IMG/VR virus record: IMGVR_UViG_2684622772_000013
Reading direction: 5' to 3' (one strand)
Source: a virus
Lineage: Duplodnaviria; Heunggongvirae; Uroviricota; Caudoviricetes
Length of the DNA: 47,721 bases
The notes beneath the pieces are model-generated. The model was not told the DNA's origin, ran no database searches, and saw only the letters and a program-made list of their open reading frames with translations. Position numbers and translations under genes: made by a program. Numbering within the stretch: position 1 is the stretch's first letter; every line of letters begins with the position of its first letter. Positions 1 to 44,828 of the stretch are shown here, in pieces.

Positions 1-1236
1 CTACGATAACCGCGCATTCAACATGGCTACCTGTTCGTCGTTCATGTCATCAATCCACATACCGTAAATTTCATACACCATCTGCGCAGTTTCATGCCCC
101 ATCTGGCTGGCTATAAACGCCGGGTTCGCTCCTGCCGTCAACAGCCAGCAGGCAAAAGTATGCCGCGTATGGTACGGATTACGGCGGCGAATACCAGCAC
201 GTTTTACTGCTGCATTCCATCTCGCACCCAAACTGCTTACCGAGTAATAAGGTTTCTGTTTTCCGTTACACACTCTGGGCATGAAAACAAAATGCAGTTT
301 TTGCTTTTCGGTTCTGCCGTACTCCCGATGATAAAAAGTGATTTCGCTTTTGCGATGATGCCCGGTCAGTTTGTATTGCTCCTTCAGTGCTTCAAGAGCA
401 GGCTGCAGTAGTGTTACCGTCCGGATCCCCGCATTTGTTTTTGGGGGACCGAACATATCCAGTATCGTCAGGTTTCTTCTGACATTCACAACTCCCTTCT
501 CGAAATCCACATCCTCCCACGCCAGAGCAGCCAGTTCCCCGTGACGAAGCCCGGAGTATACGGCAAATTTCCACAAGTTCTGGCTCTGTCCTTTTTCACT
601 TTCCATTAATGCATTGAATTCTGTTTTAGATAACGGGTCAGGCTTTATTCTGTTTCTCTGTAATTTCTTTACTCCTTCAAATGGTTTGGTTGATATAAAT
701 CCCGACTGATACGCAAAACGTAACAACGAACAGAGCAGGGCGATATAGTTATCAACTGTGCGCACGGTTCTTCCTTTTTTGTTGGATCTTGGATTATCCA
801 GGTAAAGCGTTTCTCCATGCAGCAGTTCATTCCGGTAGTTTAAGATATCGCTATAACGAATATGCGATATCGGAGTACTCTCACAAATTATTATCCTGAG
901 TGTTTTTAATTGTGATTTCGTTTTCTTCATTGTGTTTGTTGTTAACTCTGTTTCTTTAATTTTTGTCCAGATATCACAAAGCTCCCCGAACGTTTTTATG
1001 ACCCTCGTTGTCACCATTTTTGCCCCAGTGCTGGACTGGGGAAAACGTCTTAAATACTCAAACTCACCGGAATTGATTTCATGAACTATCAACGCTCTTA
1101 AATTCCCGGCTTTTTTAATGTTACTGTTAGTAACCTCCCAGCCTTTCAATGTTTCCCGACATCGTTTTCCTCGAAACATGAACCAGATGCGAATGTATTT
1201 ACCTCGAATCTCGACACCTGTTGGTAATTTAGACAT
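1..1236 (-). CDS. intR: Tyrosine site-specific integrase
   Basis: 411-aa ORF; N-terminus MSKLPTGVEIRGKYIRIWF and C-terminal HTRHTFACWLL...ASQMGHE catalytic region typical of tyrosine recombinases; ATG at 1234-1236; adjacent excisionase. Confidence 0.93.
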   Translation of the reverse strand: MSKLPTGVEIRGKYIRIWFMFRGKRCRETLKGWEVTNSNIKKAGNLRALIVHEINSGEFEYLRRFPQSSTGAKMVTTRVIKTFGELCDIWTKIKETELTTNTMKKTKSQLKTLRIIICESTPISHIRYSDILNYRNELLHGETLYLDNPRSNKKGRTVRTVDNYIALLCSLLRFAYQSGFISTKPFEGVKKLQRNRIKPDPLSKTEFNALMESEKGQSQNLWKFAVYSGLRHGELAALAWEDVDFEKGVVNVRRNLTILDMFGPPKTNAGIRTVTLLQPALEALKEQYKLTGHHRKSEITFYHREYGRTEKQKLHFVFMPRVCNGKQKPYYSVSSLGARWNAAVKRAGIRRRNPYHTRHTFACWLLTAGANPAFIASQMGHETAQMVYEIYGMWIDDMNDEQVAMLNARLS

Positions 1237-5487: not shown

Positions 5488-5763
5488 TCAGATTTCACCT
5501 TTTAATTTCATTGCAATTAGAGTTGCCAGAAATTCGGCTTTTTTTTCTGCGGGCAGATTCTTTCCGATATGCACCAGGCACATTTTTTTGACACCTTCAT
5601 CAAGTGTTTTTACGTTGCCTGATGGACCATCGATATCAACCACAGTGAATGGGGTTTCTTTATTTTCTGTTTTAATTACGTAGCCAATGCGCTTTCCTTC
5701 CAGATTCACCTCGTGAACAATGTCATCGGTAGTTACAACAGTGGCTTCATAATTGGTAATCAT
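5488..5763 (-). CDS. racC: RacC protein
   Basis: Track ORF trimmed to MITNYEATVVTTDDIVHEVNLEGKRIGYVIKTENK (91 aa), matching recalled RacC. Confidence 0.85.
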   Translation of the reverse strand: MITNYEATVVTTDDIVHEVNLEGKRIGYVIKTENKETPFTVVDIDGPSGNVKTLDEGVKKMCLVHIGKNLPAEKKAEFLATLIAMKLKGEI

Positions 5764-8931: not shown

Positions 8932-9789
8932 ATGCTGTTTGTGCTTATTCTAAGCCACCGGGCAGCATCATACGGGGCAATTATGGCCGCATTACCATAC
9001 ATGCAACTGTACATAGCTGATTACCTGGCTGACACCATGCATTTGTCAGCAGAGGAGCATGGTGCGTATTTGTTGCTGATGTTCAATTACTGGCAAACAG
9101 GAAAGCCAATACCTAAAAACAGGCTGGCAAAAATTGCCCGTCTGACTAACGAGCGATGGGCTGATGTTGAACCATCCTTGCAGGAGTTTTTTTGCGATAA
9201 CGGCGAGGAATGGGTGCATCTTCGGATTGAGGAAGATCTGGCATCAGTCAGGGAAAAATTAACCAAAAAATCAGCCGCAGGAAAAGCATCTGTTCAGGCC
9301 AGAAGAAGCAGAAAGGAAGCAGATGTTCAAACAAAACAAGAGAGAAATTTAACAGGTGTTCAAACAGATGTTGAAGTGGTGTTTGAACATGATGTCAACA
9401 CAAAGGCAACTAATAAAGATACAGATAAAGATCTAAAAACAGATCCCCCCCTAAATCCCCCCCGGGGGAATCGAGGTGTCAAAAAGTTTGACCCTCTGGA
9501 TATTGCTTTGCCGAACTGGATTTCTGTCTCGCTTTGGCGTGAGTGGGTTGAATTTCGCCAGGCATTGCGAAAACCGATTCGAACGGAGCAGGGCGCTAAC
9601 GGGGCGATACGGGAGCTGGAAAAATTCCGCCAGCAGGGTTTTTCACCTGAGCAGGTGATTCGACACAGCATCGCCAATGAATACCAGGGCTTGTTCGCGC
9701 CGAAAGGTGTTCGACCTGAGACGTTACTCCGACAGGTTAACACCGTCTCGTTACCGGATAGTGCGATCCCGCCAGGCTTCAGGGGGTAA
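8932..9789 (+). CDS. ydaU: Replication initiation protein, YdaU-like (DUF1376)
   Basis: 285 aa, same length as recalled Rac YdaU; sits upstream of the DnaC-like loader; contains iteron-like repeats and an AT-rich tract in its central linker. Confidence 0.75.
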   Translation: MLFVLILSHRAASYGAIMAALPYMQLYIADYLADTMHLSAEEHGAYLLLMFNYWQTGKPIPKNRLAKIARLTNERWADVEPSLQEFFCDNGEEWVHLRIEEDLASVREKLTKKSAAGKASVQARRSRKEADVQTKQERNLTGVQTDVEVVFEHDVNTKATNKDTDKDLKTDPPLNPPRGNRGVKKFDPLDIALPNWISVSLWREWVEFRQALRKPIRTEQGANGAIRELEKFRQQGFSPEQVIRHSIANEYQGLFAPKGVRPETLLRQVNTVSLPDSAIPPGFRG

Positions 9790-9795
9790 CTGACC

Positions 9796-10542
9796 ATGAA
9801 AAATATTGCGACAGGCGACGTTCTTGAACGTATCCGCAGACTGGCCCCGTCACATGTAACCGCGCCATTCAAGACGGTAGCGGAGTGGCGCGAGTGGCAA
9901 CTTTCCGAAGGCCAGAAACGTTGTGAGGAGATCAACCGTCAGAATCGTCAGTTGCGGGTGGAAAAAATTCTGAATCGCTCTGGCATCCAGCCATTGCACC
10001 GCAAATGCTCGTTTTCGAATTACCAGGTGCAGAACGAAGCGCAGCGATACGCGTTGAGTCAGGCGAAATCCATCGCTGATGAACTGATGACCGGGTGTAC
10101 AAATTTTGCGTTCAGCGGAAAACCTGGTACCGGGAAGAACCACTTAGCGGCAGCTATCGGGAATCGCCTGCTGAAAGACGGTCAGACAGTGATTGTGGTT
10201 ACCGTGGCTGATGTTATGAGTGCCCTGCACGCCAGCTATGACGATGGGCAGTCAGGCGAAAAATTTTTGCGGGAACTATGCGAAGTGGATCTGCTGGTTC
10301 TTGATGAAATTGGCATTCAGCGCGAGACGAAAAACGAGCAGGTGGTGCTGCACCAGATTGTTGATCGCCGGACAGCGTCGATGCGCAGCGTGGGGATGCT
10401 GACAAACCTGAACTATGAGGCCATGAAAACATTGCTCGGCGAGCGGATTATGGATCGCATGACCATGAACGGCGGGCGATGGGTGAATTTTAACTGGGAG
10501 AGCTGGCGTCCGAATGTCGTCCAGCCAGGAATTGAGAAGTAA
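9796..10542 (+). CDS. ydaV: DnaC-like helicase loader (AAA+ ATPase)
   Basis: Walker [16 protein letters not shown] and Walker B LLVLDEIG; 248 aa. Confidence 0.88.
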
Positions 10543-10564
10543 TTTTTACCGGGAGGAAATTTTT

Positions 10565-11326
10565 ATGGAGACTGTTTTTGACGCACTGAAAGCAATGGGA
10601 AAAGCCACATCCATAGAACTTGCTGCGCGACTTGATATCAGTCGTGAAGAAGTGCTGAACGAACTATGGGAACTGAAAAAAGCTGGTTTCGTTGATAAAA
10701 GCGCGTACACCTGGCGTGTGGCTGATAACAACGTTCAGCAGGAACAGCCAATGCAGGCAGAACTGCCGGAAGAAACCACCACGGCAACTGTAGTGAAAAT
10801 CTCAGAGTGCGATTTAACCGCGACGATTGAACAACGCGGACCACAAACGGCGGATGAACTGGCTACGCTGTTCGGTACAACATCCCGCAAAGTTGCTTCA
10901 ACGCTGGCAATGGCAATCAGCAAAGGACGCCTGATTCGCGTAAACCAGAACAGTAAATTTCGTTACTGCATGCCGGGCGATAATTTACCAGCAGAGCCGA
11001 AAGCTGCATCGGTAGCGGAAACTGATGGTAAAGCCTTTCCTCAGCCAGCCGGTGTTGCGTTACCAGTACAGGAAGCGGCAACACAGGAAGATATTAAAAC
11101 AGAAACTGTGGCGGACATTGTGCAGTCGCTGCCATCGTTTACTGAAACGCAAGCGGATGACCTAGTTTTACCATCGCTGCATATGGCAAACCGCGAACTG
11201 CGTCGGGCGAAAAATCATGTCCAGAAGTGGGAGCGAGTCTGCGCCGCGCTGCGGGAGCTGAACAAGCACCGGGATATTGTCCGACAGATTGTCGATTCCT
11301 CCAGTCGTATTGTGTCGGAAAAGTGA
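10565..11326 (+). CDS. Hypothetical phage protein (YdaW-like position)
   Basis: Track ORF trimmed to ATG at 10565 ([23 protein letters not shown]), which has a GGGAGG ribosome-binding site; this avoids overlap with ydaV. Confidence 0.6.
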
Positions 11327-16308: not shown

Positions 16309-16598
16309 TGGTGAATTTACGTAAAGCGGCTAAAGGCCAGATGTGCCAGATCAGAATCCCTGGCTACTGCAATCACAATCCCGAAACCTCTGTGCTGGCG
16401 CATTACAGGCTGGCGGGGACGTGCGGAACAGCGACAAAACCACATGATATGCAGGCGGCGATAGCCTGTAGCTCATGCCACGATCTAATCGACGGGCGGG
16501 TAAAAACCAGCGATTACACCAAAGAAGAATTGCGCCTGATGCATGCTGAAGGGGTTTTTCGCACACAAGAAATCTGGAGAAAGAAAGGTCATTTATGA
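16308..16598 (+). CDS. DUF1364 (YbcO-like) protein
   Basis: 96 aa, MVNLRKAAKGQMCQIRIPGYCNHNPETSVLAHYRLAG...SSCHDLIDGR, matching the recalled YbcO Cys-rich pattern. Confidence 0.7.
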   Translation: MVNLRKAAKGQMCQIRIPGYCNHNPETSVLAHYRLAGTCGTATKPHDMQAAIACSSCHDLIDGRVKTSDYTKEELRLMHAEGVFRTQEIWRKKGHL

Positions 16599-17137
16599 TT
16601 TACCCAACGAATACAGGAAAAAGCGGAGAACACCTTCGCCTCACCACGCTGGAAAGTGTCTGGATTCAGGGAAAACTACGTATGTGGGGGCGCTGGTCGT
16701 ATATTGGCGGTGGCAGGTCAGGGAATATGTTCAATCAGTTGTTGGCATCCAAAAAACTGACGAAAACAGCCATTAATGAAGCCCTGCGCAGAATGAAAAA
16801 AGCGGGAATAGAGAAAGCTGAGCTGGAAGCGTTTTTGCGAGAGATGATCAACGGCAAGCAAAAGAGCTGGCTGGCGCATTGTACTGATGCAGAGGCGTTA
16901 TGTATTGATCGAGTCATAAGTGAGGTGCTGGCAGAGCATCCAGGATTGATTTGCATTCTCCGGCAACGCTATGAAGGGCGGGGGATGACTAAGCGCAAAA
17001 TGGCTGAATTGCTAAATGATGCACACCCAGAGTGGTGTTTTAGCACATGCGAAAAACGGATTGCTAATTGGTTAGCTGTTGCTGAGTATGCCCTATATAT
17101 TCCCATGCGTGAATCATTTGCTGAGAAAATGGCTTGA
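16595..17137 (+). CDS. Late-gene antiterminator Q (phage 21-like)
   Basis: 180-aa protein immediately upstream of a short promoter region, an intrinsic terminator and the phage-21-type lysis cassette. Confidence 0.65.
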   Translation: MIYPTNTGKSGEHLRLTTLESVWIQGKLRMWGRWSYIGGGRSGNMFNQLLASKKLTKTAINEALRRMKKAGIEKAELEAFLREMINGKQKSWLAHCTDAEALCIDRVISEVLAEHPGLICILRQRYEGRGMTKRKMAELLNDAHPEWCFSTCEKRIANWLAVAEYALYIPMRESFAEKMA

Positions 17138-17217
17138 TTTCTTACGTATAAACTGCTTCAATTTTGCTATGCTTCGCAAAGCTGTATCGCGAGGCGGATT
17201 GCAGACATGGACATCGT

Positions 17218-17245
17218 AAAAAAACCGCTTAATGCGGTTTTTTTA
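17218..17245 (+). terminator. Intrinsic terminator (tR'-like) downstream of Q
   Basis: AAAAAAACCGC-TTAAT-GCGGTTTTTTT hairpin plus T-run about 80 nt after the Q stop. Confidence 0.7.
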
Positions 17246-18181
17246 CGTCAGGAAAGCAGGGGAGAATGCTGCTAGTTGGGCAACTGGTCTTTCTGCTCCA
17301 AATTATAACAGAGACCAGTTATAGTTTCGGTGCTGTGTTTTTTTTACAATATTGTGATAACACATTGCTGGCGGGAGTTTTGATATTTCTTGGCAGGGGC
17401 TGATGATGCGTTATCCTGATGTCGTCAACTCATATAAAATGAGATGAGAGATCATTGCAGGGTGGTTTGTAATTCGCTGTTTAGCGGGACAATATGTTGT
17501 CTGATACAAGACACCCGACGCCTCAGATTACTATAATAAAGACGAAGCATCCTTTGTATTGACCAACCGCCTGTTTAGGCGGTTCTTTTTGGGCTGGTTT
17601 ATTGTATGCCAAATGATTATTAAAAAGGTTGTGTTAATAACAAGATCCGAAATAATATGCCTGCATATTTTTATCTTGCTTATATTCTGCATATTGTGCA
17701 TAGCAGGCTCATCCCTGCAATCAAAACTGTATGATGAGTATTTTTTGTTTTCCTTTTTTCCAGTCATCTGATGATGACCTGCTTCTTTTTAATCCGGATC
17801 GACATCAGTTTTTTAAGATAATTCCTGCGAGTTATATGCATAAATGCCACAAACTCCGCATTTTATGTGGTTGGGAGTTGCCGGGCGCGCAGTGAGTTTG
17901 CTAAGAAAACTCCTGCATGGTGAATCCCCCTGTGCGGTGGGGTGATACCATTAACCTTTTCTGTCGCCGACAGGTATCACGAACATTTTGTTCACCGGGA
18001 GGCACCCGGCACCATGCACTTCAATAGATTCTCTCCACATTATGGATATTCTTTCAGAATATCCCACGCAGACTTTGTGTAAATGTTAACAAATGTGCGT
18101 TTTATTTGATCTGATTCGCTGTTTGAGCGTCCAAAACAACGGTATATATAATCCTTTACTATATGACATATGTGAGGAAAA

Positions 18182-18610
18182 ATGGGTTTTCGTAGCGCAT
18201 CAATTCTTACGTTGATTATTAGTGGGATTATTATCGGGTGCACTGATGCTGTATCGACAAATTATCATGACCGTACATCATATTACTCCGATAAAGCAAT
18301 AGAGACACAGTATGTGAGTTCATCTGAACGTACTTCTGATGTTAGTGAGGATATCCGTCTGTATGCCCATCAAATCAAGAGCGCCATCGAAAAACAGTTC
18401 GGGGATGCGAGTAAGTATTCAGGAAAAGAGTGTACACTGAGAATGCATATGGCCCCGAATGGCCTTCTACTGGAGGTTAAAAGAGAAAGTGGAGACCTCG
18501 ATTTATGTCGTGAAGCGATGAATGCGATAAAGAATGCTGATATACCTGCCCCCCCTTCGCCGGAAGTATATAAAGTATTTCAAAATGGGGTGCTGGATTT
18601 TAAACCCTGA
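18182..18610 (+). CDS. Lipoprotein with TolA domain III-like mature region
   Basis: Signal peptide with lipobox IIGC; C-terminal ~85 aa (YAHQIKSAIEKQFGDASKYSGKECTLRMHMAPNGLLLEV...PSPEVYKVFQNGVLDFKP) closely resembles the recalled TolA C-terminus. Confidence 0.7.
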   Translation: MGFRSASILTLIISGIIIGCTDAVSTNYHDRTSYYSDKAIETQYVSSSERTSDVSEDIRLYAHQIKSAIEKQFGDASKYSGKECTLRMHMAPNGLLLEVKRESGDLDLCREAMNAIKNADIPAPPSPEVYKVFQNGVLDFKP

Positions 18611-18760
18611 TATTTATTGTTTTGTAATAAACGGTTTCGGCTTAGGTTTGTTCTGACACAGCTACGGCACTGAGCTAAATTTAGCGGATAGTCAGCTCTG
18701 AGCCAGTGGCGGACGTAACAACTACTATTGCTGAGATTTTAATGGATTGAGGAGCAAGAA

Positions 18761-19156
18761 GTGGGATTAAAGAAAATCGTTATGTTGACTTTTTGGGTCG
18801 GTTTTGTTGCGGGATGCACACCTTTACACCCTTCAGATTGCCACAAAACTACTGCTACAGGTAGTTGCAGTTCAGGACGCTGGGATGATCAGGATGAATG
18901 GGGGGCGCAAGCGCGGGGAATCAGAGCTGCAATTAATGCCAAACTTGATGAGCCGCATAACTGGAAAGGGAAAAAATGCAGGTTGCATATGGAATTCTCT
19001 CAGGATGGCACGGCGTTAAAAATATCTACCAGTAACGGTGATAAAGCCTATTGCGAAGCGATAAAGTCCGCAGCTCATAAAGCCAAATTTCCGGCCTTCA
19101 ACAATCCGGAAGTCTACAGAGATTTTCAGAAATCTGGCTTTGACATGCGAGGTTAG
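18761..19156 (+). CDS. Second, more divergent TolA-III-like lipoprotein (paralogue)
   Basis: GTG start with GAGGAG ribosome-binding site; lipobox VAGC; shares the conserved CxLxM...GD..C...A...P..NPEVY..FQ pattern. Confidence 0.6.
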   Translation: MGLKKIVMLTFWVGFVAGCTPLHPSDCHKTTATGSCSSGRWDDQDEWGAQARGIRAAINAKLDEPHNWKGKKCRLHMEFSQDGTALKISTSNGDKAYCEAIKSAAHKAKFPAFNNPEVYRDFQKSGFDMRG

Positions 19157-19407
19157 CTCTTCAATTACTATATCTCATTCATAGCAAACTGACAGATTTG
19201 ATGATGTTCTATATACGAAACCTGTGATGTCAAGTCTGAGCTAATACAAATAAACATAATATCAGAGAAATACATTTTATTAGCTCGCTACGGCGAGCTT
19301 TTTATATTGCATCGTCTCCAGCATATATATCAATTAAGGCTCTGATTGATGTGTCTGAAAGCCTACACATAATAACTATGCCATCCGTTCCGTGCGGAGG
19401 TGAGGCT

Positions 19408-19623
19408 ATGAAATCCATGGACAAAATTTCAACAGGCATTGCCTACGGCACCTCCGCAGGCAGTGCTGGCTACTGGTTTTTACAGTTGCTCGATAGAGTA
19501 ACTCCGTCACAGTGGGCTGCAATCGGTGTGCTGGGTAGTCTGGTATTTGGCCTGCTGACGTACCTGACAAACCTTTATTTCAAGATTAAAGAAGATAAGC
19601 GCAAGGCTGCGAGAGGTGAATAA
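19408..19623 (+). CDS. Class II holin (S21-like pinholin), dual-start
   Basis: 71 aa, [29 protein letters not shown]...; two Met codons (M1, M4); GGAGGTGAGG ribosome-binding site; stop overlaps endolysin start. Confidence 0.85.
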
Positions 19624-20072
19624 TGCCTCCATCATTACGAAAAGTCGTTGCTGCTGCTATTGGTGGCGGAGCAATTGCTATAGCATCAGTGTTAATCACT
19701 GGCCCAAGTGGTAACGATGGTCTGGAAGGTGTCAGCTACATACCATACAAAGATATTGTTGGTGTATGGACTGTATGTCACGGGCATACAGGAAAAGACA
19801 TCATGCTCGGTAAAACGTATACCAAAGCAGAATGCAAAACACTCTTGAATAAAGACCTTGCCACTGTCGCCAGACAAATTAACCCGTACATCAAAGTCGA
19901 TATACCGGAAACAACGCGCGGCGCTCTTTACTCGTTCGTTTACAACGTGGGCGCTGGCAATTTCAGAACATCGACGCTTCTTCGCAAAATAAACCAGGGC
20001 TATATCAAAGGCGCATGTGATCAGCTACGTCGCTGGACATATGCTGGCGGTAAGCAATGGAAAGGTCTCATG
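19623..20072 (+). CDS. SAR endolysin (R21-like lysozyme), 3' end lost in gap
   Basis: N-terminal signal-anchor-release segment [27 protein letters not shown] then lysozyme region [24 protein letters not shown]; runs into N-gap at 20073. Confidence 0.85.
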
Positions 20073-20322
20073 NNNNNNNNNNNNNNNNNNNNNNNNNNNN
20101 NNNNNNNNNNNNNNNNNNNNNNNNNNNNNNNNNNNNNNNNNNNNNNNNNNNNNNNNNNNNNNNNNNNNNNNNNNNNNNNNNNNNNNNNNNNNNNNNNNNN
20201 NNNNNNNNNNNNNNNNNNNNNNNNNNNNNNNNNNNNNNNNNNNNNNNNNNNNNNNNNNNNNNNNNNNNNNNNNNNNNNNNNNNNNNNNNNNNNNNNNNNN
20301 NNNNNNNNNNNNNNNNNNNNNN
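20073..20322. other. Assembly gap (250 N)
   Basis: Run of N; truncates the endolysin 3' end and the Rz/Rz1 5' ends. Confidence 1.
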
Positions 20323-20564: not shown

Positions 20565-20701
20565 AATCTTAACTACAATATGATTCATTTTGATGATTGT
20601 TTCATAAGGAACAGTGAAGTAAGATCTAAGAGGAGTTAAATTTTATACAGTATAATCATAATATTGCAGCAAGGTGGTTATAATTGAAAGAATATTTAGA
20701 T

Positions 20702-22159
20702 ATGAATACATCTCATGTAAGAGTTGTTACTCATATGTGTGGGTTCCTGGTTTGGCTCTATAGTCTTTCAATGTTGCCACCAATGGTTGTAGCATTGTTT
20801 TATAAAGAAAAAAGCCTGTTCGTTTTCTTTATAACTTTCGTTATATTTTTTTGCATTGGTGGCGGAGCGTGGTATACAACTAAGAAATCTGGCATTCAAT
20901 TACGTACCCGTGATGGGTTTATTATAATTGTAATGTTTTGGATTTTGTTTTCTGTTATTAGTGCATTCCCTTTATGGATTGACTCAGAACTTAATTTAAC
21001 GTTCATTGATGCTCTGTTTGAAGGGGTTTCTGGAATAACAACAACAGGAGCAACTGTAATTGATGATGTTAGTTCATTACCTCGGGCATATTTGTACTAT
21101 CGGTCACAGTTAAATTTTATAGGTGGTTTAGGAGTTATTGTTCTGGCGGTTGCAGTATTGCCATTATTGGGTATTGGTGGTGCAAAGCTTTATCAGTCAG
21201 AAATGCCGGGGCCATTTAAGGATGACAAACTCACTCCCCGCCTGGCCGATACGTCACGGACACTGTGGATAACTTATTCTTTATTAGGTATTGCTTGTAT
21301 TGTCTGTTATAGACTTGCAGGAATGCCTTTGTTTGATGCTATTTGTCACGGGATTTCCACAGTTTCGCTTGGTGGTTTCTCAACTCATAGCGAGAGTATC
21401 GGATATTTTAATAACTATTTGGTTGAGCTGGTGGCTGGTTCTTTTTCCCTGCTATCGGCTTTCAACTTCACTCTTTGGTATATTGTTATTAGCAGAAAAA
21501 CGATAAAACCTTTAATCAGAGATATTGAACTTCGTTTCTTTCTGTTAATAGCCTTAGGGGTGATCATTGTTACCTCTTTCCAGGTCTGGCATATAGGTAT
21601 GTATGACTTGCATGGAAGTTTTATTCATTCGTTTTTTCTTGCCAGCTCCATGCTCACTGATAATGGTTTAGCTACGCAGGATTATGCAAACTGGCCCACG
21701 CACACGATAGTGTTTTTGCTGTTGTCAAGTTTCTTTGGGGGATGTATAGGTTCAACCTGTGGTGGAATTAAGTCACTTCGATTTCTTATACTTTTCAAAC
21801 AAAGCAAACACGAGATAAATCAGCTTTCTCATCCCAGAGCGTTGTTGAGTGTAAATGTAGGAGGGAAGATAGTTACAGATCGTGTAATGAGGTCTGTATG
21901 GAGTTTCTTTTTTCTTTATACTCTCTTCACGGTGTTTTTTATACTGGTGTTAAATGGTATGGGATATGATTTTCTTACATCATTTGCAACAGTGGCTGCA
22001 TGTATTAATAATATGGGATTAGGTTTTGGGGCTACTGCATCGTCATTCGGAGTGCTTAATGACATTGCAAAATATTTAATGTGCATAGCTATGATTCTTG
22101 GTCGCCTTGAAATTTATCCTGTTATTATATTGTTTTCAGGTTTTTTTTGGCGCTCCTAA
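20702..22159 (+). CDS. trkG: TrkG potassium uptake protein (prophage moron)
   Basis: Track ORF trimmed to MNTSHVRVVTHMCGFLVWLYSLSMLPP (485 aa), matching recalled TrkG; multi-pass membrane protein; AT-rich relative to flanks. Confidence 0.92.
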   Translation: MNTSHVRVVTHMCGFLVWLYSLSMLPPMVVALFYKEKSLFVFFITFVIFFCIGGGAWYTTKKSGIQLRTRDGFIIIVMFWILFSVISAFPLWIDSELNLTFIDALFEGVSGITTTGATVIDDVSSLPRAYLYYRSQLNFIGGLGVIVLAVAVLPLLGIGGAKLYQSEMPGPFKDDKLTPRLADTSRTLWITYSLLGIACIVCYRLAGMPLFDAICHGISTVSLGGFSTHSESIGYFNNYLVELVAGSFSLLSAFNFTLWYIVISRKTIKPLIRDIELRFFLLIALGVIIVTSFQVWHIGMYDLHGSFIHSFFLASSMLTDNGLATQDYANWPTHTIVFLLLSSFFGGCIGSTCGGIKSLRFLILFKQSKHEINQLSHPRALLSVNVGGKIVTDRVMRSVWSFFFLYTLFTVFFILVLNGMGYDFLTSFATVAACINNMGLGFGATASSFGVLNDIAKYLMCIAMILGRLEIYPVIILFSGFFWRS

Positions 22160-39082: not shown

Positions 39083-39332
39083 NNNNNNNNNNNNNNNNNN
39101 NNNNNNNNNNNNNNNNNNNNNNNNNNNNNNNNNNNNNNNNNNNNNNNNNNNNNNNNNNNNNNNNNNNNNNNNNNNNNNNNNNNNNNNNNNNNNNNNNNNN
39201 NNNNNNNNNNNNNNNNNNNNNNNNNNNNNNNNNNNNNNNNNNNNNNNNNNNNNNNNNNNNNNNNNNNNNNNNNNNNNNNNNNNNNNNNNNNNNNNNNNNN
39301 NNNNNNNNNNNNNNNNNNNNNNNNNNNNNNNN
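39083..39332. other. Assembly gap (250 N)
   Basis: Run of N between the L and K homologues. Confidence 1.
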
Positions 39333-40555: not shown

Positions 40556-43500
40556 ATGGGTAAAGGCAGCAGTAAGGGGCATACCCCGCGCGAAGCGAAG
40601 GACAACCTGAAGTCCACGCAGCTGCTGAGTGTGATCGATGCCATCAGTGAAGGGCCGGTTGAAGGTCCGGTGGATGGATTAAAAAGCGTGCTGCTGAACA
40701 GTACGCCGGTGCTGGACAATGAGGGGAATACCAACATCTCCGGCGTCACGGTGGTGTTCCGGGCAGGTGAGCAGGAGCAGTCACCGCCGGAGGGGTTTGA
40801 ATCCTCCGGCTCCGAGACGGTGCTGGGTACGGAAGTGAAATATGACACGCCGATCACCCGGACCATCACGTCGGCAAACATCGACCGTCTGCGCTTTACC
40901 TTCGGTGTACAGGCACTGGTGGAAACCACCTCAAAGGGAGACAGGAATCCGTCGGAAGTCCGCCTGCTGGTTCAGATACAGCGTAACGGTGGCTGGGTGA
41001 CGGAAAAAGACATCACCATTAAGGGCAAAACCACCTCGCAGTATCTGGTCTCGGTGGTGGTGGATAACCTGCCTCCGCGCCCGTTCAGTATCCGGATGCG
41101 CAGGATGACACCGGACAGCACCACAGACCAGCTGCAGAACAAAACGCTCTGGTCGTCATACACCGAAATCATCGATGTGAAACAGTGCTACCCGAACACT
41201 GCACTGGTCGGCGTACAGGTGGACTCGGAGCAGTTCGGCAGCCAGCAGGTGAGTCGTAATTATCATCTTCGCGGGCGCATTCTGCAGGTGCCGTCGAACT
41301 ATAACCCGCAGACGCGACAATACAGCGGTATCTGGGACGGAACGTTAAAACCAGCATACAGCAACAACATGGCCTGGTGTCTGTGGGATATGCTGACCCA
41401 CCCGCGCTACGGCATGGGGAAACGTCTTGGTGCGGCGGATGTGGACAAATGGGCGCTGTATGTCATCGGCCAGTACTGCGACCAGTCAGTGCCGGACGGC
41501 TTTGGCGGCACGGAGCCGCGCATCACCTGTAATGCGTACCTGACCACACAGCGCAAGGCGTGGGATGTGCTCAGTGATTTCTGCTCGGCGATGCGCTGTA
41601 TGCCGGTATGGAACGGGCAGACGCTGACGTTCGTGCAGGACCGACCGTCGGATAAGGTGTGGACCTATAACCGCAGTAATGTGGTGATGCCGGATGATGG
41701 CGCGCCGTTCCGCTACAGCTTCAGCGCCCTGAAAGACCGCCATAATGCCGTTGAGGTGAACTGGATTGACCCGGATAACGGCTGGGAGACGGCGACAGAG
41801 CTTGTGGAGGATACGCAGGCCATTGCCCGTTACGGTCGTAACGTCACGAAGATGGATGCTTTTGGCTGTACCAGCCGGGGGCAGGCACACCGCGCCGGGC
41901 TGTGGCTGATTAAAACAGAACTGCTGGAAACGCAGACCGTGGACTTCAGCGTGGGCGCAGAAGGGCTTCGCCATGTGCCGGGCGATGTCATTGAAATCTG
42001 TGATGATGACTATGCGGGTATCAGCATCGGCGGGCGCGTGCTGGCGGTAAACAGCCAGACCCGGACGCTGACGCTCGACCGTGAAATCACGCTGCCATCC
42101 TCCGGTACCATGCTGATAAGCCTGGTTGACGGAAGTGGCAATCCGGTCAGCGTGGAGGTTCAGTCCGTCACCGACGGCGTGAAGGTGAAAGTGAGCCGTG
42201 TTCCTGACGGCGTTGCTGAATACAGCGTGTGGGGGCTGAAGCTGCCGACGTTGCGCCAGCGCCTGTTCCGCTGTGNNNNNNNNNNNNNNNNNNNNNNNNN
42301 NNNNNNNNNNNNNNNNNNNNNNNNNNNNNNNNNNNNNNNNNNNNNNNNNNNNNNNNNNNNNNNNNNNNNNNNNNNNNNNNNNNNNNNNNNNNNNNNNNNN
42401 NNNNNNNNNNNNNNNNNNNNNNNNNNNNNNNNNNNNNNNNNNNNNNNNNNNNNNNNNNNNNNNNNNNNNNNNNNNNNNNNNNNNNNNNNNNNNNNNNNNN
42501 NNNNNNNNNNNNNNNNNNNNNNNNNNNNNNNNNNNNNNNNNNNNNNNNNNNNNNNNNNNNNNNNNNNNNNNNNNNNNNNNNNNNNNNNNNNNNNNNNNNN
42601 NNNNNGCTGACAGTCCGGGCGGTAAATGCCTGGGGACAGCAGGGCGATCCGGCGTCGGTATCGTTCAGGATTGCCGCACCGGTAGCACCGTCGCGGATTG
42701 AGCTGACGCCGGGCTATTTTCAGATAACTGCCACGCCGCATCTTGCGGTTTATGATCCGACGGTACAGTTTGAGTTCTGGTTCTCGGAAACGCGGATTAC
42801 CGATATCAGGCAGGTTGAAACCACAGCCCGCTACCTTGGCGCGGGGCTGTACTGGATAGCCGCCAGTATCAATATCAAACCGGGCCATGATTATTACTTT
42901 TATATCCGCAGTGTGAACACCGTTGGCAAATCGGCATTCGTGGAGGCCGTCGGTCGGGCGAGCGATGATGCGGAAGGTTACCTGGATTTTTTCAAAGGCA
43001 AGATAACCGAATCCCATCTCGGTAAAGAGCTGCTGGAAAAAGTTGATCTGACGGAGGATAACGCCAGCAGACTGGATGAGTTTTCGAAAGAGTGGAAGGA
43101 CGCTAACGATAAATGGAATGCGATGTGGGGCGTCAAAATTGAGCAGACCAAAGACGGCAAACATTATGTCGCGGGTATTGGCCTCAGCATGGAGGACACG
43201 GAGGAAGGCAAGCTGAGCCAGTTTCTGGTTGCCGCCAATCGTATCGCGTTTATTGACCCGGCAAACGGGAATGAAACGCCGATGTTTGTGGCGCAGGGCA
43301 ACCAGATATTCATGAACGACGTGTTCCTGAAGCGCCTGACAGCCCCCGCCATTACCAGCGGTGGCAGTCCTCCGGTATTTTCCCTGACATCAGACGGAAA
43401 GCTGACCGCTAAAAATGCGGATATCAGTGGTAGTGTGAATGCGAACTCAGGAACGCTCAACAATGTCACGATTAACCAGAACTGTACGATTAAGGGCATG

Positions 43501-44023: not shown

Positions 44024-44828
44024 ATGCGTAAAGTTTGTGCCGCCATTTTGTCCGCAGCCATTTGTCTGGCCGTATCCGGTGCGCCTGCATGGGCGTCTGA
44101 ACATCAGTCCACGCTGAGCGCGGGGTATCTTCATGCCCGGACCAACGTTCCCGGCAGTGATGATCTGAACGGGATTAACGTGAAATACCGTTATGAGTTT
44201 ACGGATACGCTGGGGCTGGTGACGTCATTCAGCTATGCAGGAGACAAGAATCGCCAGCTGACCCGTTACAGCGATACCCGCTGGCATGAAGATTCCGTGC
44301 GTAACCGCTGGTTCAGCGTGATGGCGGGGCCGTCTGTGCGCGTGAATGAATGGTTCAGCGCGTATGCGATGGCGGGTGTGGCTTACAGCCGTGTGTCGAC
44401 TTTTTCCGGGGATTATATCCGCGTAACTGACAATAAGGGGAAAACGCACGATGTGCTGACCGGAAGTGATGACGGTCGCCACAGCAACACNNNNNNNNNN
44501 NNNNNNNNNNNNNNNNNNNNNNNNNNNNNNNNNNNNNNNNNNNNNNNNNNNNNNNNNNNNNNNNNNNNNNNNNNNNNNNNNNNNNNNNNNNNNNNNNNNN
44601 NNNNNTTTCTCCGGGGATTATCTCCGCGTAACTGACAACAAGGGGAAAACGCACGACGTGCTGACCGGAAGTGATGACGGTCGCCACAGCAACACGTCTC
44701 TGGCGTGGGGAGCTGGCGTGCAGTTTAACCCGACCGAATCCGTGGCCATTGATATTGCTTATGAAGGCTCCGGCAGTGGCGACTGGCGCACTGACGGTTT
44801 CATCGTGGGTGTCGGTTATAAGTTCTGA
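44024..44828 (+). CDS. lom: Outer membrane protein Lom (Ail/Lom family), interrupted by gap 44491..44605
   Basis: Signal peptide MRKVCAAILSAAICLAVSGAPAWA and C-terminal ...GFIVGVGYKF beta-barrel terminus; the gap is flanked by a near-identical ~90-bp duplicate. Confidence 0.85.

Follow-up and report, generated by a model that had tools for sequence, protein, structure and literature searches.

Two lipoproteins built on TolA domain III in a Rac-type prophage of Escherichia coli, and their possible role as outer-membrane decoys

Two lipoprotein genes upstream of the holin

The 47,721-nucleotide stretch of viral DNA analysed here (IMG/VR record IMGVR_UViG_2684622772_000013; the window) is a Rac-type lambdoid prophage of Escherichia coli that begins with intR (1–1236, minus strand) and runs into the tail genes. 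Between the gene in the Q position and the holin gene lie two plus-strand genes, at 18182–18610 and 18761–19156, encoding proteins of 142 and 131 amino acids (P1 and P2, respectively). Each is a predicted lipoprotein with a domain related to the C-terminal domain III of the host protein TolA (TolAIII). An earlier reading of the letters alone (the original prediction) had described these genes, with lipoboxes IIGC and VAGC, and we recovered both open reading frames on the same strand and with the same boundaries. P1 begins with ATG, with GAGGA 5 nucleotides upstream, and P2 with GTG, preceded by GAGGAG.

Both proteins carry a complete lipoprotein signal, defined as the lipobox pattern [LVI][ASTVI][GAS]C after a charged n-region and a hydrophobic h-region. 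The N terminus of P1 reads MGFRSASILTLIISGIIIGC followed by TD, with R4 in the n-region, SILTLIISGIII as the h-region and IIGC as the lipobox (Cys20, codon 18239–18241); that of P2 reads MGLKKIVMLTFWVGFVAGC followed by TP, with K4 and K5 in the n-region, IVMLTFWVGF as the h-region and VAGC as the lipobox (Cys19, codon 18815–18817). The signal is followed in P1 by a disordered linker (residues 21–54) and the TolAIII domain (residues 55–142, from nucleotide 18344), and in P2 by a linker with conserved Cys27 and Cys36 and the TolAIII domain (residues 45–131, from nucleotide 18893). Sorting of E. coli lipoproteins is governed by aspartate at position +2. This residue is threonine in both P1 and P2, and because neither has aspartate there, the outer membrane is their expected destination.

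The GTG start of P2 at 18761 is backed by alignment, a plasmid-borne copy having ATG in the corresponding position. When P2-type genes of that plasmid and of three other genera are aligned, DNA homology starts around 35 nucleotides before the GTG codon and stops at the stop codon. The Prokaryotic Genome Annotation Pipeline (PGAP) in RefSeq places the start at an internal ATG (18782; 124 amino acids), which we disfavour because the signal peptide would be left without its n-region. P2-type genes of other genera are misannotated in the opposite way, with N-terminal extensions to 144–153 amino acids.

The original prediction had proposed alignment and structure prediction as checks on the likeness to TolAIII (TolA residues ~330–421; Protein Data Bank (PDB) entries 1tol, 1s62, 2x9a and 3qdp/3qdr), and with Pfam, phmmer, BLASTP and Foldseek the similarity proved to be far beyond chance. 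Both proteins exceeded the curated gathering score of 25 bits for Pfam family PF06519 (TolA_C), P1 with 82.6 bits (E = 2.4e-23, profile positions 4–96 of 96) and P2 with 54.6 bits (E = 1.3e-14, positions 10–92 of 96); the other Pfam matches were TonB_2 and, below threshold for P2, But2. A phmmer comparison with PDB sequences gave E. coli TolA chains as the only significant matches (5e-28 for P1, 5e-9 for P2), and a PDB profile search for a solved structure of such a lipoprotein likewise returned TolA chains only. In ungapped BLASTP alignments to residues 334–421 of E. coli TolA, P1 was 60% identical over 86 amino acids, with the resemblance running to the predicted ending ...VFQNGVLDFKP, and P2 was 34% identical over 77 amino acids. 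The mutual identity of the two proteins is only 29%, and P1 is nearer to TolA than to P2.

AlphaFold (AF2) models of both proteins had predicted local distance difference test (pLDDT) scores above 90 across the domain, with elements in the order helix–helix–strand–strand–helix–helix–strand; the linker was disordered in P1 and partly ordered in P2. The best Foldseek matches of both models were crystal structures of E. coli TolAIII (3qdp, 3qdr, 2x9a and 1tol), with template-modelling (TM) scores relative to the target of 0.85–0.96 and root-mean-square deviations of 0.6–2.9 Å. Both cysteines of the TolAIII disulfide were invariant in an alignment of 19 sequences. A search of BFVD, a library of viral protein models, gave no match at E ≤ 0.001.

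P1 and P2 do not have the full TolA architecture, with a lipoprotein signal taking the place of transmembrane domain I and helical domain II. The NCBIfam TolA equivalogs match them only along their last ~95 positions (293–386 of 387 and 265–362 of 362). Both proteins fall under the cut-off of 213 for NF007065 (107.8 for P1, 53.7 for P2); for TIGR02794 (cut-off 59.45), P2 scores 47.2, below, and P1 scores 75.6, above, on domain III alone, which is why PGAP calls P1 tolA. Judged by sequence, this name ('cell envelope integrity protein TolA') is wrong because domains I and II are missing. We also rejected the idea that P1 and P2 are bona fide TolA or a fragment of host tolA, given their lipoprotein signals, the presence of domain III only and the purifying selection described below.

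The sites at which partners bind TolAIII have been mapped. The N terminus of TolB, colicin N (ColN) and the N1 domain of the filamentous phage protein g3p all bind by β-strand addition to β3 (A415–K420), with D418P or K420P abolishing binding; g3p additionally touches the helix at 334–349, and colicin A (ColA) uses 375-LLDIKP-380 on the opposite side (Ridley & Lakey 2015, PMC4339652). In the ungapped alignment, P1 has FQNGVLDFKP at β3 (7 of 10 identities, with LDFKP identical and no proline in the strand), SEDIRLYAHQIKSAIE at the g3p-contact helix (11/16 identities) and LLEVKR at the ColA site. Retention of these three epitopes makes P1 a credible mimic of E. coli TolAIII. P2 reads FQKSGFDMRG at β3 (2/10 identities), QDEWGAQARGIRAAIN at the helix (4/16) and ALKIST at the ColA site (2/6). 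The mimicry originally predicted for both proteins is thus borne out at the epitopes of P1 and not at those of P2. β3 is modelled as an open edge strand in both, and P2 appears to keep the fold and this edge but not the side chains. With its epitopes diverged and its own family strongly conserved, P2 mimics E. coli TolAIII poorly, and its ligand may be a different one.

Lineages, selection and carriage on mobile elements

Escherichia and Shigella were the only genera in which P1-type proteins were found, the most distant variants being 65% identical. The P2 type is represented by more than 368 clusters of 78–89% identity; the genera named for these are Citrobacter, Enterobacter, Serratia, Klebsiella, Raoultella and Shigella, to which scanning of genomes added Leclercia, Pantoea and seven others. 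When 1.84 billion representatives were searched with a profile, 580 matched; around half of the best 150 were 110–160 amino acids long and aligned from the signal peptide onward. A lipobox was present in 42 of the 47 short relatives that we fetched, none of the 42 having aspartate at +2, and the family thus conserves its lipid anchor. The lipoprotein–TolAIII architecture recurs in dozens of clusters at 50% identity, and those short relatives that could be named came from Serratia, Rahnella, Kosakonia and Dryocola, all automatically named TolA.

A rough neighbour-joining tree of the domain grouped the true TolA sequences together and spread the lipoprotein forms over many deep branches. P1 and P2 fell on different deep branches, the P2 clade, with its extra cysteine pair in the linker, being the most divergent. 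P1 and P2 thus appear to represent two deep lineages of a broad family of TolAIII lipoproteins of ~120–150 amino acids. The original prediction had taken P2 for a diverged copy of P1; with 29% identity, P1 nearer to TolA and separate deep lineages, a recent tandem duplication is rejected.

Both genes are maintained under purifying selection, as the ratio of nonsynonymous to synonymous substitution rates (dN/dS) is well below 1. Comparing P2 with 13 chromosomal copies gave dN/dS of 0.06–0.16 at dS of 0.75–1.7, with the linker (residues 20–44) constrained like the domain (dN 0.035–0.1 versus dS above 1); conserved motifs of the P2-clade linker are CHKTTATGSC, which is disulfide-bracketed, and GRWDDQDEWG. 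For P1 and a variant of 66% identity, dN/dS was 0.35 overall and 0.29 in the domain. These values bear on the idea that P1 and P2 are functionless tolA fragments that illegitimate recombination brought in and that travel passively with the holin module. The plain tolA label that PGAP gives P1 would suit such passengers, as would the frameshifted copies that a homopolymer of seven C in P1 (C7; 18549–18555, plus strand, codons PAPPS) gives in some assemblies, with loss of helix 3 and strand β3. However, the reading frames are intact in 82 of 83 loci, complete lipoprotein signals absent from TolA are present together with ribosome-binding sites, dN/dS of both genes is well under 1, and dozens of 50%-identity clusters keep the same architecture. 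Selection and architecture effectively refute this idea, which we regard as highly improbable. The tract itself is C7 in 82 of 83 loci and C8 in one (L057); in clusters P0009–P0017 (156–163 amino acids) P1 is frameshifted there and loses its last helix and strand, and the tract could be a switch or a sequencing artefact.

The divergence of the P2 clade raises another explanation, namely that the TolAIII/TonB-C-like fold serves an unrelated ligand or role and that the likeness to TolA reflects ancestry rather than mimicry. Such roles might include serum resistance or adhesion (as for Bor and TraT), peptidoglycan or porin binding or, for the plasmid copy, conjugation. Other outer-membrane lipoprotein morons, Bor among them, have host-interaction roles, and the P2 clade is not only the most divergent but also has an extra, disulfide-bracketed linker constrained like the domain. 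Fusion forms with other domains (P0176, P0178 and P0205) point the same way. P1 and most short relatives, however, keep the ..FKNAxLDFKP C-terminal strand and 45–60% identity to true TolAIII, which would be difficult to account for if TolA-type ligands had ceased to matter; we consider an unrelated role unlikely. The fusion forms are longer secreted or lipoprotein forms in which an Ala/Lys-rich linker joins TolAIII to a second TonB-C/TolA-like domain or an unrelated N-terminal domain, indicating that the captured domain occurs in further architectures.

The whole P1–P2 stretch was present at ≥99% in 775 of 5426 complete E. coli genomes (~14%), and the pair occurred in only 1 of 50,697 deposited phage genomes (mEp460_ev081). 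P1 and P2 were adjacent in 80/80 IMG/VR loci, at identical spacing except in L018 and with the same holin behind them, and the antiterminator genes upstream and the endolysins downstream varied. Comparison with six loci by blastn delimited a shared mosaic module at 17894–19624 of the window, comprising an STnc100-family small RNA (sRNA), P1, P2, a terminator and the holin. Its left edge (17894) falls within the STnc100 element, and the backbones carry different Q genes. Similarity to prophage DLP12 of E. coli K-12 starts only at the ribosome-binding site of the holin (~19397), with the porin gene nmpC occupying the slot. For this reason the intrinsic terminator between P2 and the holin (19282–19307, plus strand; hairpin 19282–19299 with a 7-bp GC-rich stem, a loop of 4 and the U-run UUUUUAU) is assigned to the cassette and not to the holin module. 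Present or absent between homologous neighbours and equipped with its own terminator, the P1–P2 cassette is a putative moron. Known morons of the Q-to-holin interval, stx and the nmpC/lc porin genes, share the slot; their proteins and functions differ from those of P1 and P2. The 66% P1 variant stands alone in another prophage (L124, 4933–5361), with a hairpin of its own and a copy of STnc100 behind it. It comes after Q, a gene for a DNA methylase and tRNA-Ile/Arg and precedes a gene for a SASA-family esterase, a position that we take to be the stx slot of Stx phages.

P2-type genes also occur outside prophages. Conjugative IncK2/Z plasmids (MPF_I) carry an 88% P2 variant directly behind a NikB-type relaxase gene and before trbC (L093, 3613–4044; L122, 7001–7432; L125, 4995–5426), an arrangement seen in 4/4 sampled conjugative carriers, and around 600 plasmids in PLSDB have this variant at ≥95% identity. 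On pO157 of E. coli O157:H7, an intact P2-type gene adjoins a truncated nikB. Conjugative IncFIB/FII plasmids (MPF_F) of Klebsiella carry a third lineage of 144 amino acids, with lipobox ITAC and C terminus NAALDFRL, beside a thioredoxin-fold gene (L123, 4812–5246); 252 Klebsiella plasmid records matched the query, and those examined were all of this type. P2-type genes also occur singly in the chromosomes of at least 14 other genera of Enterobacterales. Chromosomal copies in other genera have no phage genes nearby. Their site is conserved within Leclercia, takes at least three different positions in Enterobacter and differs across genera; in Serratia the gene adjoins GmrSD/HEPN genes. The description as prophage lipoproteins therefore holds for lipid-anchored TolAIII copies that prophages do carry and is too narrow for the P2 type, whose presence on IncK2/Z plasmids, pO157 and many unrelated chromosomal sites rules out a prophage-specific invention. 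One copy, in Enterobacter quasiroggenkampii WCHECL1060 (L114, 6001–6387), is a pseudogene because of an internal stop (W to stop, in GRWDDQDEWG).

A possible decoy and its alternatives

We favour, tentatively and at slightly less than an even chance, the reading that P1 and P2 are outer-membrane-anchored decoys that intercept TolA-binding invaders. It builds on observed features, namely the homology and fold of the domain, the lipoprotein signals, the retained epitopes of P1, purifying selection and carriage on mobile elements. Both proteins would be secreted, lipid-modified and placed on the inner face of the outer membrane, each holding TolAIII on a tether of 25–35 residues, unconnected to the TolQR motor. 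The tethered domain would present invaders with the edge strand and surfaces by which they engage genuine TolA, so that the translocation domains of group A bacteriocins and the N1 domain of g3p would be captured unproductively just past the outer membrane, leaving the host tolerant. P1 would serve as the close mimic of E. coli TolAIII, and P2 as an older, separately conserved lineage of other specificity. Localization, expression in the lysogen, binding and phenotype are the parts that this reading would add to the observed ones.

P1 and P2 share with E. coli TolAIII its fold, as modelled, and its disulfide, while in such a scheme their lipoprotein signal and short tether would put the domain on the opposite membrane; as domains I and II are missing, the domain would be uncoupled from TolQR and the proton-motive force. 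Export of the TolA C-terminal domain to the periplasm, in laboratory work of 1993, reportedly made cells colicin-tolerant and leaky. The likeness lies in free TolAIII competing with native TolA, but that construct was artificial, overproduced and soluble, whereas P1 and P2 are natural, diverged, borne by mobile elements and, as predicted, lipid-anchored.

Affinities also favour a decoy, as TolAIII binds ColN and g3p at ~1 µM and TolB at 40–250 µM (PMC4339652). Because TolB binds at least 40 times more weakly, moderate amounts of a decoy need not cripple the Tol–Pal system.

The main rival explanation turns on that same TolB contact. As modulators of Tol–Pal, P1 and P2 would use the tethered TolAIII to bind the N terminus of TolB (or Pal), keep TolQRA from parting TolB and Pal and so loosen the link between outer membrane and peptidoglycan; made from the late transcript this would ease final lysis or yield more vesicles, and at a low level it would change envelope properties. 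The position of the pair in the late operon, directly before the holin and co-travelling with it as one module in all 80 IMG/VR loci, suits such a role, but the plasmid and chromosomal P2-type genes and the P1 variant of L124 have no adjoining lysis genes, and the phage already has a full holin–endolysin–spanin set. The TolB-binding β3 is intact in P1, the edge strand is open in both models and a block between TolA and TolB gives the full tol phenotype (Ridley & Lakey, PMC4339652); against this, the low affinity of TolB for TolAIII means that much protein would be required. Strong purifying selection on P2, linker included, would suit a conserved host partner, whereas a plasmid or chromosome that imposed a leaky envelope constitutively would do so at a cost. 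On balance we regard Tol–Pal modulation as somewhat unlikely.

The distribution of the genes fits the host-protective cargo that decoys would be, in view of the moron slot, the slot resembling that of stx, the conjugative plasmids and the GmrSD/HEPN neighbours in Serratia. Filamentous phages of this kind take I-type or F-type pili as their primary receptor. Carriage on conjugative plasmids fits a decoy because plasmid pili attract filamentous phages that depend on TolA; g3p of filamentous phage IF1 uses TolAIII as co-receptor (PDB 2x9a). The original prediction had proposed a decoy giving superinfection exclusion, colicin tolerance or envelope modulation, and the epitopes, the +2 residue and the mobile-element carriage are consistent with it.

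Several observations weigh against decoys. P2 departs from TolAIII at every mapped epitope, and its strong conservation from one genus to another resembles what a conserved binding partner, more than an arms race, would produce. Hosts of I-complex plasmids are classically If1-sensitive, so any protection would be at best partial or conditional. Periplasmic TolAIII could also compete for TolB, at a cost. Finally, late-operon genes may be made mainly after induction, when protection of the cell is of little use. A sigma-70 promoter-like site lies around 30 nucleotides upstream of P1 (TTGAGC-18-TATAAT, 18123–18152, plus strand; 10/12 consensus), which is weak evidence. The region holds 11 promoter-like sites where 6.5 ± 2.4 are expected by chance, and in front of the 66% P1 variant its sequence is conserved only in TTTACTATAT. 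The promoter evidence is no better than chance, which leaves expression in the lysogen hypothetical. Once induction has occurred, P1 and P2 would be cotranscribed with the lysis genes regardless. One possibility, by inference, is that transcripts from the late promoter traverse P1 and P2 and stop before the holin even without Q.

Small protective outer-membrane lipoproteins that interfere with an entry receptor include Cor (of φ80, N15, HK022 and mEp phages), Llp (of T5) and TraT (of F). Like P1 and P2 these are small lipoproteins borne by phages or plasmids, and the resemblance is one of proposed role only: Cor and Llp bind and block FhuA, whereas P1 and P2 would act on the invader, titrating it with an imitated receptor domain. 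In sequence and fold, no relation to Cor or Llp was found, with Pfam giving TolA_C, TonB_2 and the sub-threshold But2 match. In cells infected by Ff phages, envelope g3p occupies TolA and gives immunity. The same interaction of g3p N1 with TolAIII there blocks filamentous phages and colicins; the arrangement proposed here would be its mirror image, in that a copy of the receptor blocks the ligand and not an invader's ligand the receptor.

A known defence system was rejected as an identity for P1 or P2, neither having a match to a defence-system family in PADLOC-DB v2 at E ≤ 0.1. PHROG assigns both to phrog_5772, 'unknown function'. Our full-text literature search, which covered a minority of subscription journals, found no description of proteins of the P1 or P2 type, in agreement with the earlier statement that no characterized phage TolAIII lipoprotein was known. 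The terms 'paralog' and 'homologue of TolA' do not occur in a 2020 Tol–Pal review, and one paper lists, without studying it, a 1,355-bp prophage-associated variable region, 'TolA protein, hypothetical protein'. The Pfam domain, PHROG 5772 and the PGAP names were thus already visible in databases, and a characterization was not found in that literature. Protective outer-membrane lipoproteins of mobile elements are a known kind, of which P1 and P2 would be examples apparently built from a captured host co-receptor domain.

More broadly, TolAIII outer-membrane lipoproteins might constitute a widespread, unrecognized class of receptor-decoy immunity in Enterobacterales, spread by lambdoid prophages, I-complex and F-type plasmids and genomic islands. 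In this extension, which we hold to be doubtful though far from negligible, the P1-like, P2-like and Klebsiella-plasmid-like lineages would differ in the Tol-dependent bacteriocins and the pilus-specific filamentous phages to which they are tuned, and copies on conjugative plasmids would offset the vulnerability created by the plasmid's own pilus. If P1 and P2 do act as decoys, they would be a natural case of a mobile element copying the domain of a host entry co-receptor to disarm rival toxins and phages, a strategy distinct from receptor blocking (Cor, Llp), receptor loss and intracellular defence. They would then bear on colicin ecology in the gut, given that ~14% of complete E. coli genomes have the pair and that pO157 has a relative, and on how plasmids cope with pilus-specific phages, themselves proposed as anti-plasmid therapeutics. 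To work on Tol–Pal they would contribute natural variants of TolAIII whose partner specificity is altered. Whatever the function, thousands of database entries of 130–150 amino acids are misnamed 'cell envelope integrity protein TolA' or 'colicin import membrane protein'.

Prophage setting and neighbouring features

Over positions 1–24832 the window is collinear, at 99.9%, with the Rac prophage that E. coli FORC_081 carries at ttcA. The interval 9787–11157 is mostly missing from the FORC_081 copy, and the window extends past that copy into structural genes. The gene in the Q position (16595–17137) encodes a DUF1133 protein. Around 80 nucleotides 3′ of it lies a hairpin with flanking A- and U-runs in the shape of a bidirectional terminator (17212–17248; −19.7 kcal/mol, z −7.6), and a second terminator-like hairpin lies at 17565–17596. 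The original prediction placed the lipoprotein genes between a Q terminator and the holin; the position is right, and either of these two candidate hairpins may be the late terminator.

The STnc100-family sRNA (17885–18071, plus strand; Rfam RF02076, 86.6 bits against a gathering score of 47) ends around 110 nucleotides upstream of P1 and is probably the leader of the late transcript. Its 3′ hairpin in the window has no U-run, unlike the Rfam consensus and the copy in L124 (~5490–5680). Downstream of P2, the class II, EssD-like holin gene (19408–19623, plus strand) forms the right end of the shared module, homology stopping at 19624; it belongs to the context and not to the TolA-like function.

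The prophage has holin, endolysin and spanin genes, with terminase and morphogenesis genes downstream, and because these full lysis genes and the terminase and morphogenesis genes are kept it is far more complete than the Rac remnant of K-12. Directly 3′ of the lysis genes, as in K-12 Rac, lies trkG (20684–22159, plus strand), encoding a potassium transporter. Runs of N occur at 20073–20322 (250 nucleotides), 39083–39332 (250), 42276–42605 (330) and 44491–44605 (115); the first interrupts the endolysin and spanin genes, so that open reading frames there contain runs of X. Near the left end, RalA, the antitoxin sRNA of the RalR/RalA type I toxin–antitoxin system, is encoded at 1557–1735 on the plus strand (Rfam RF02694, 225 bits), as expected for Rac.

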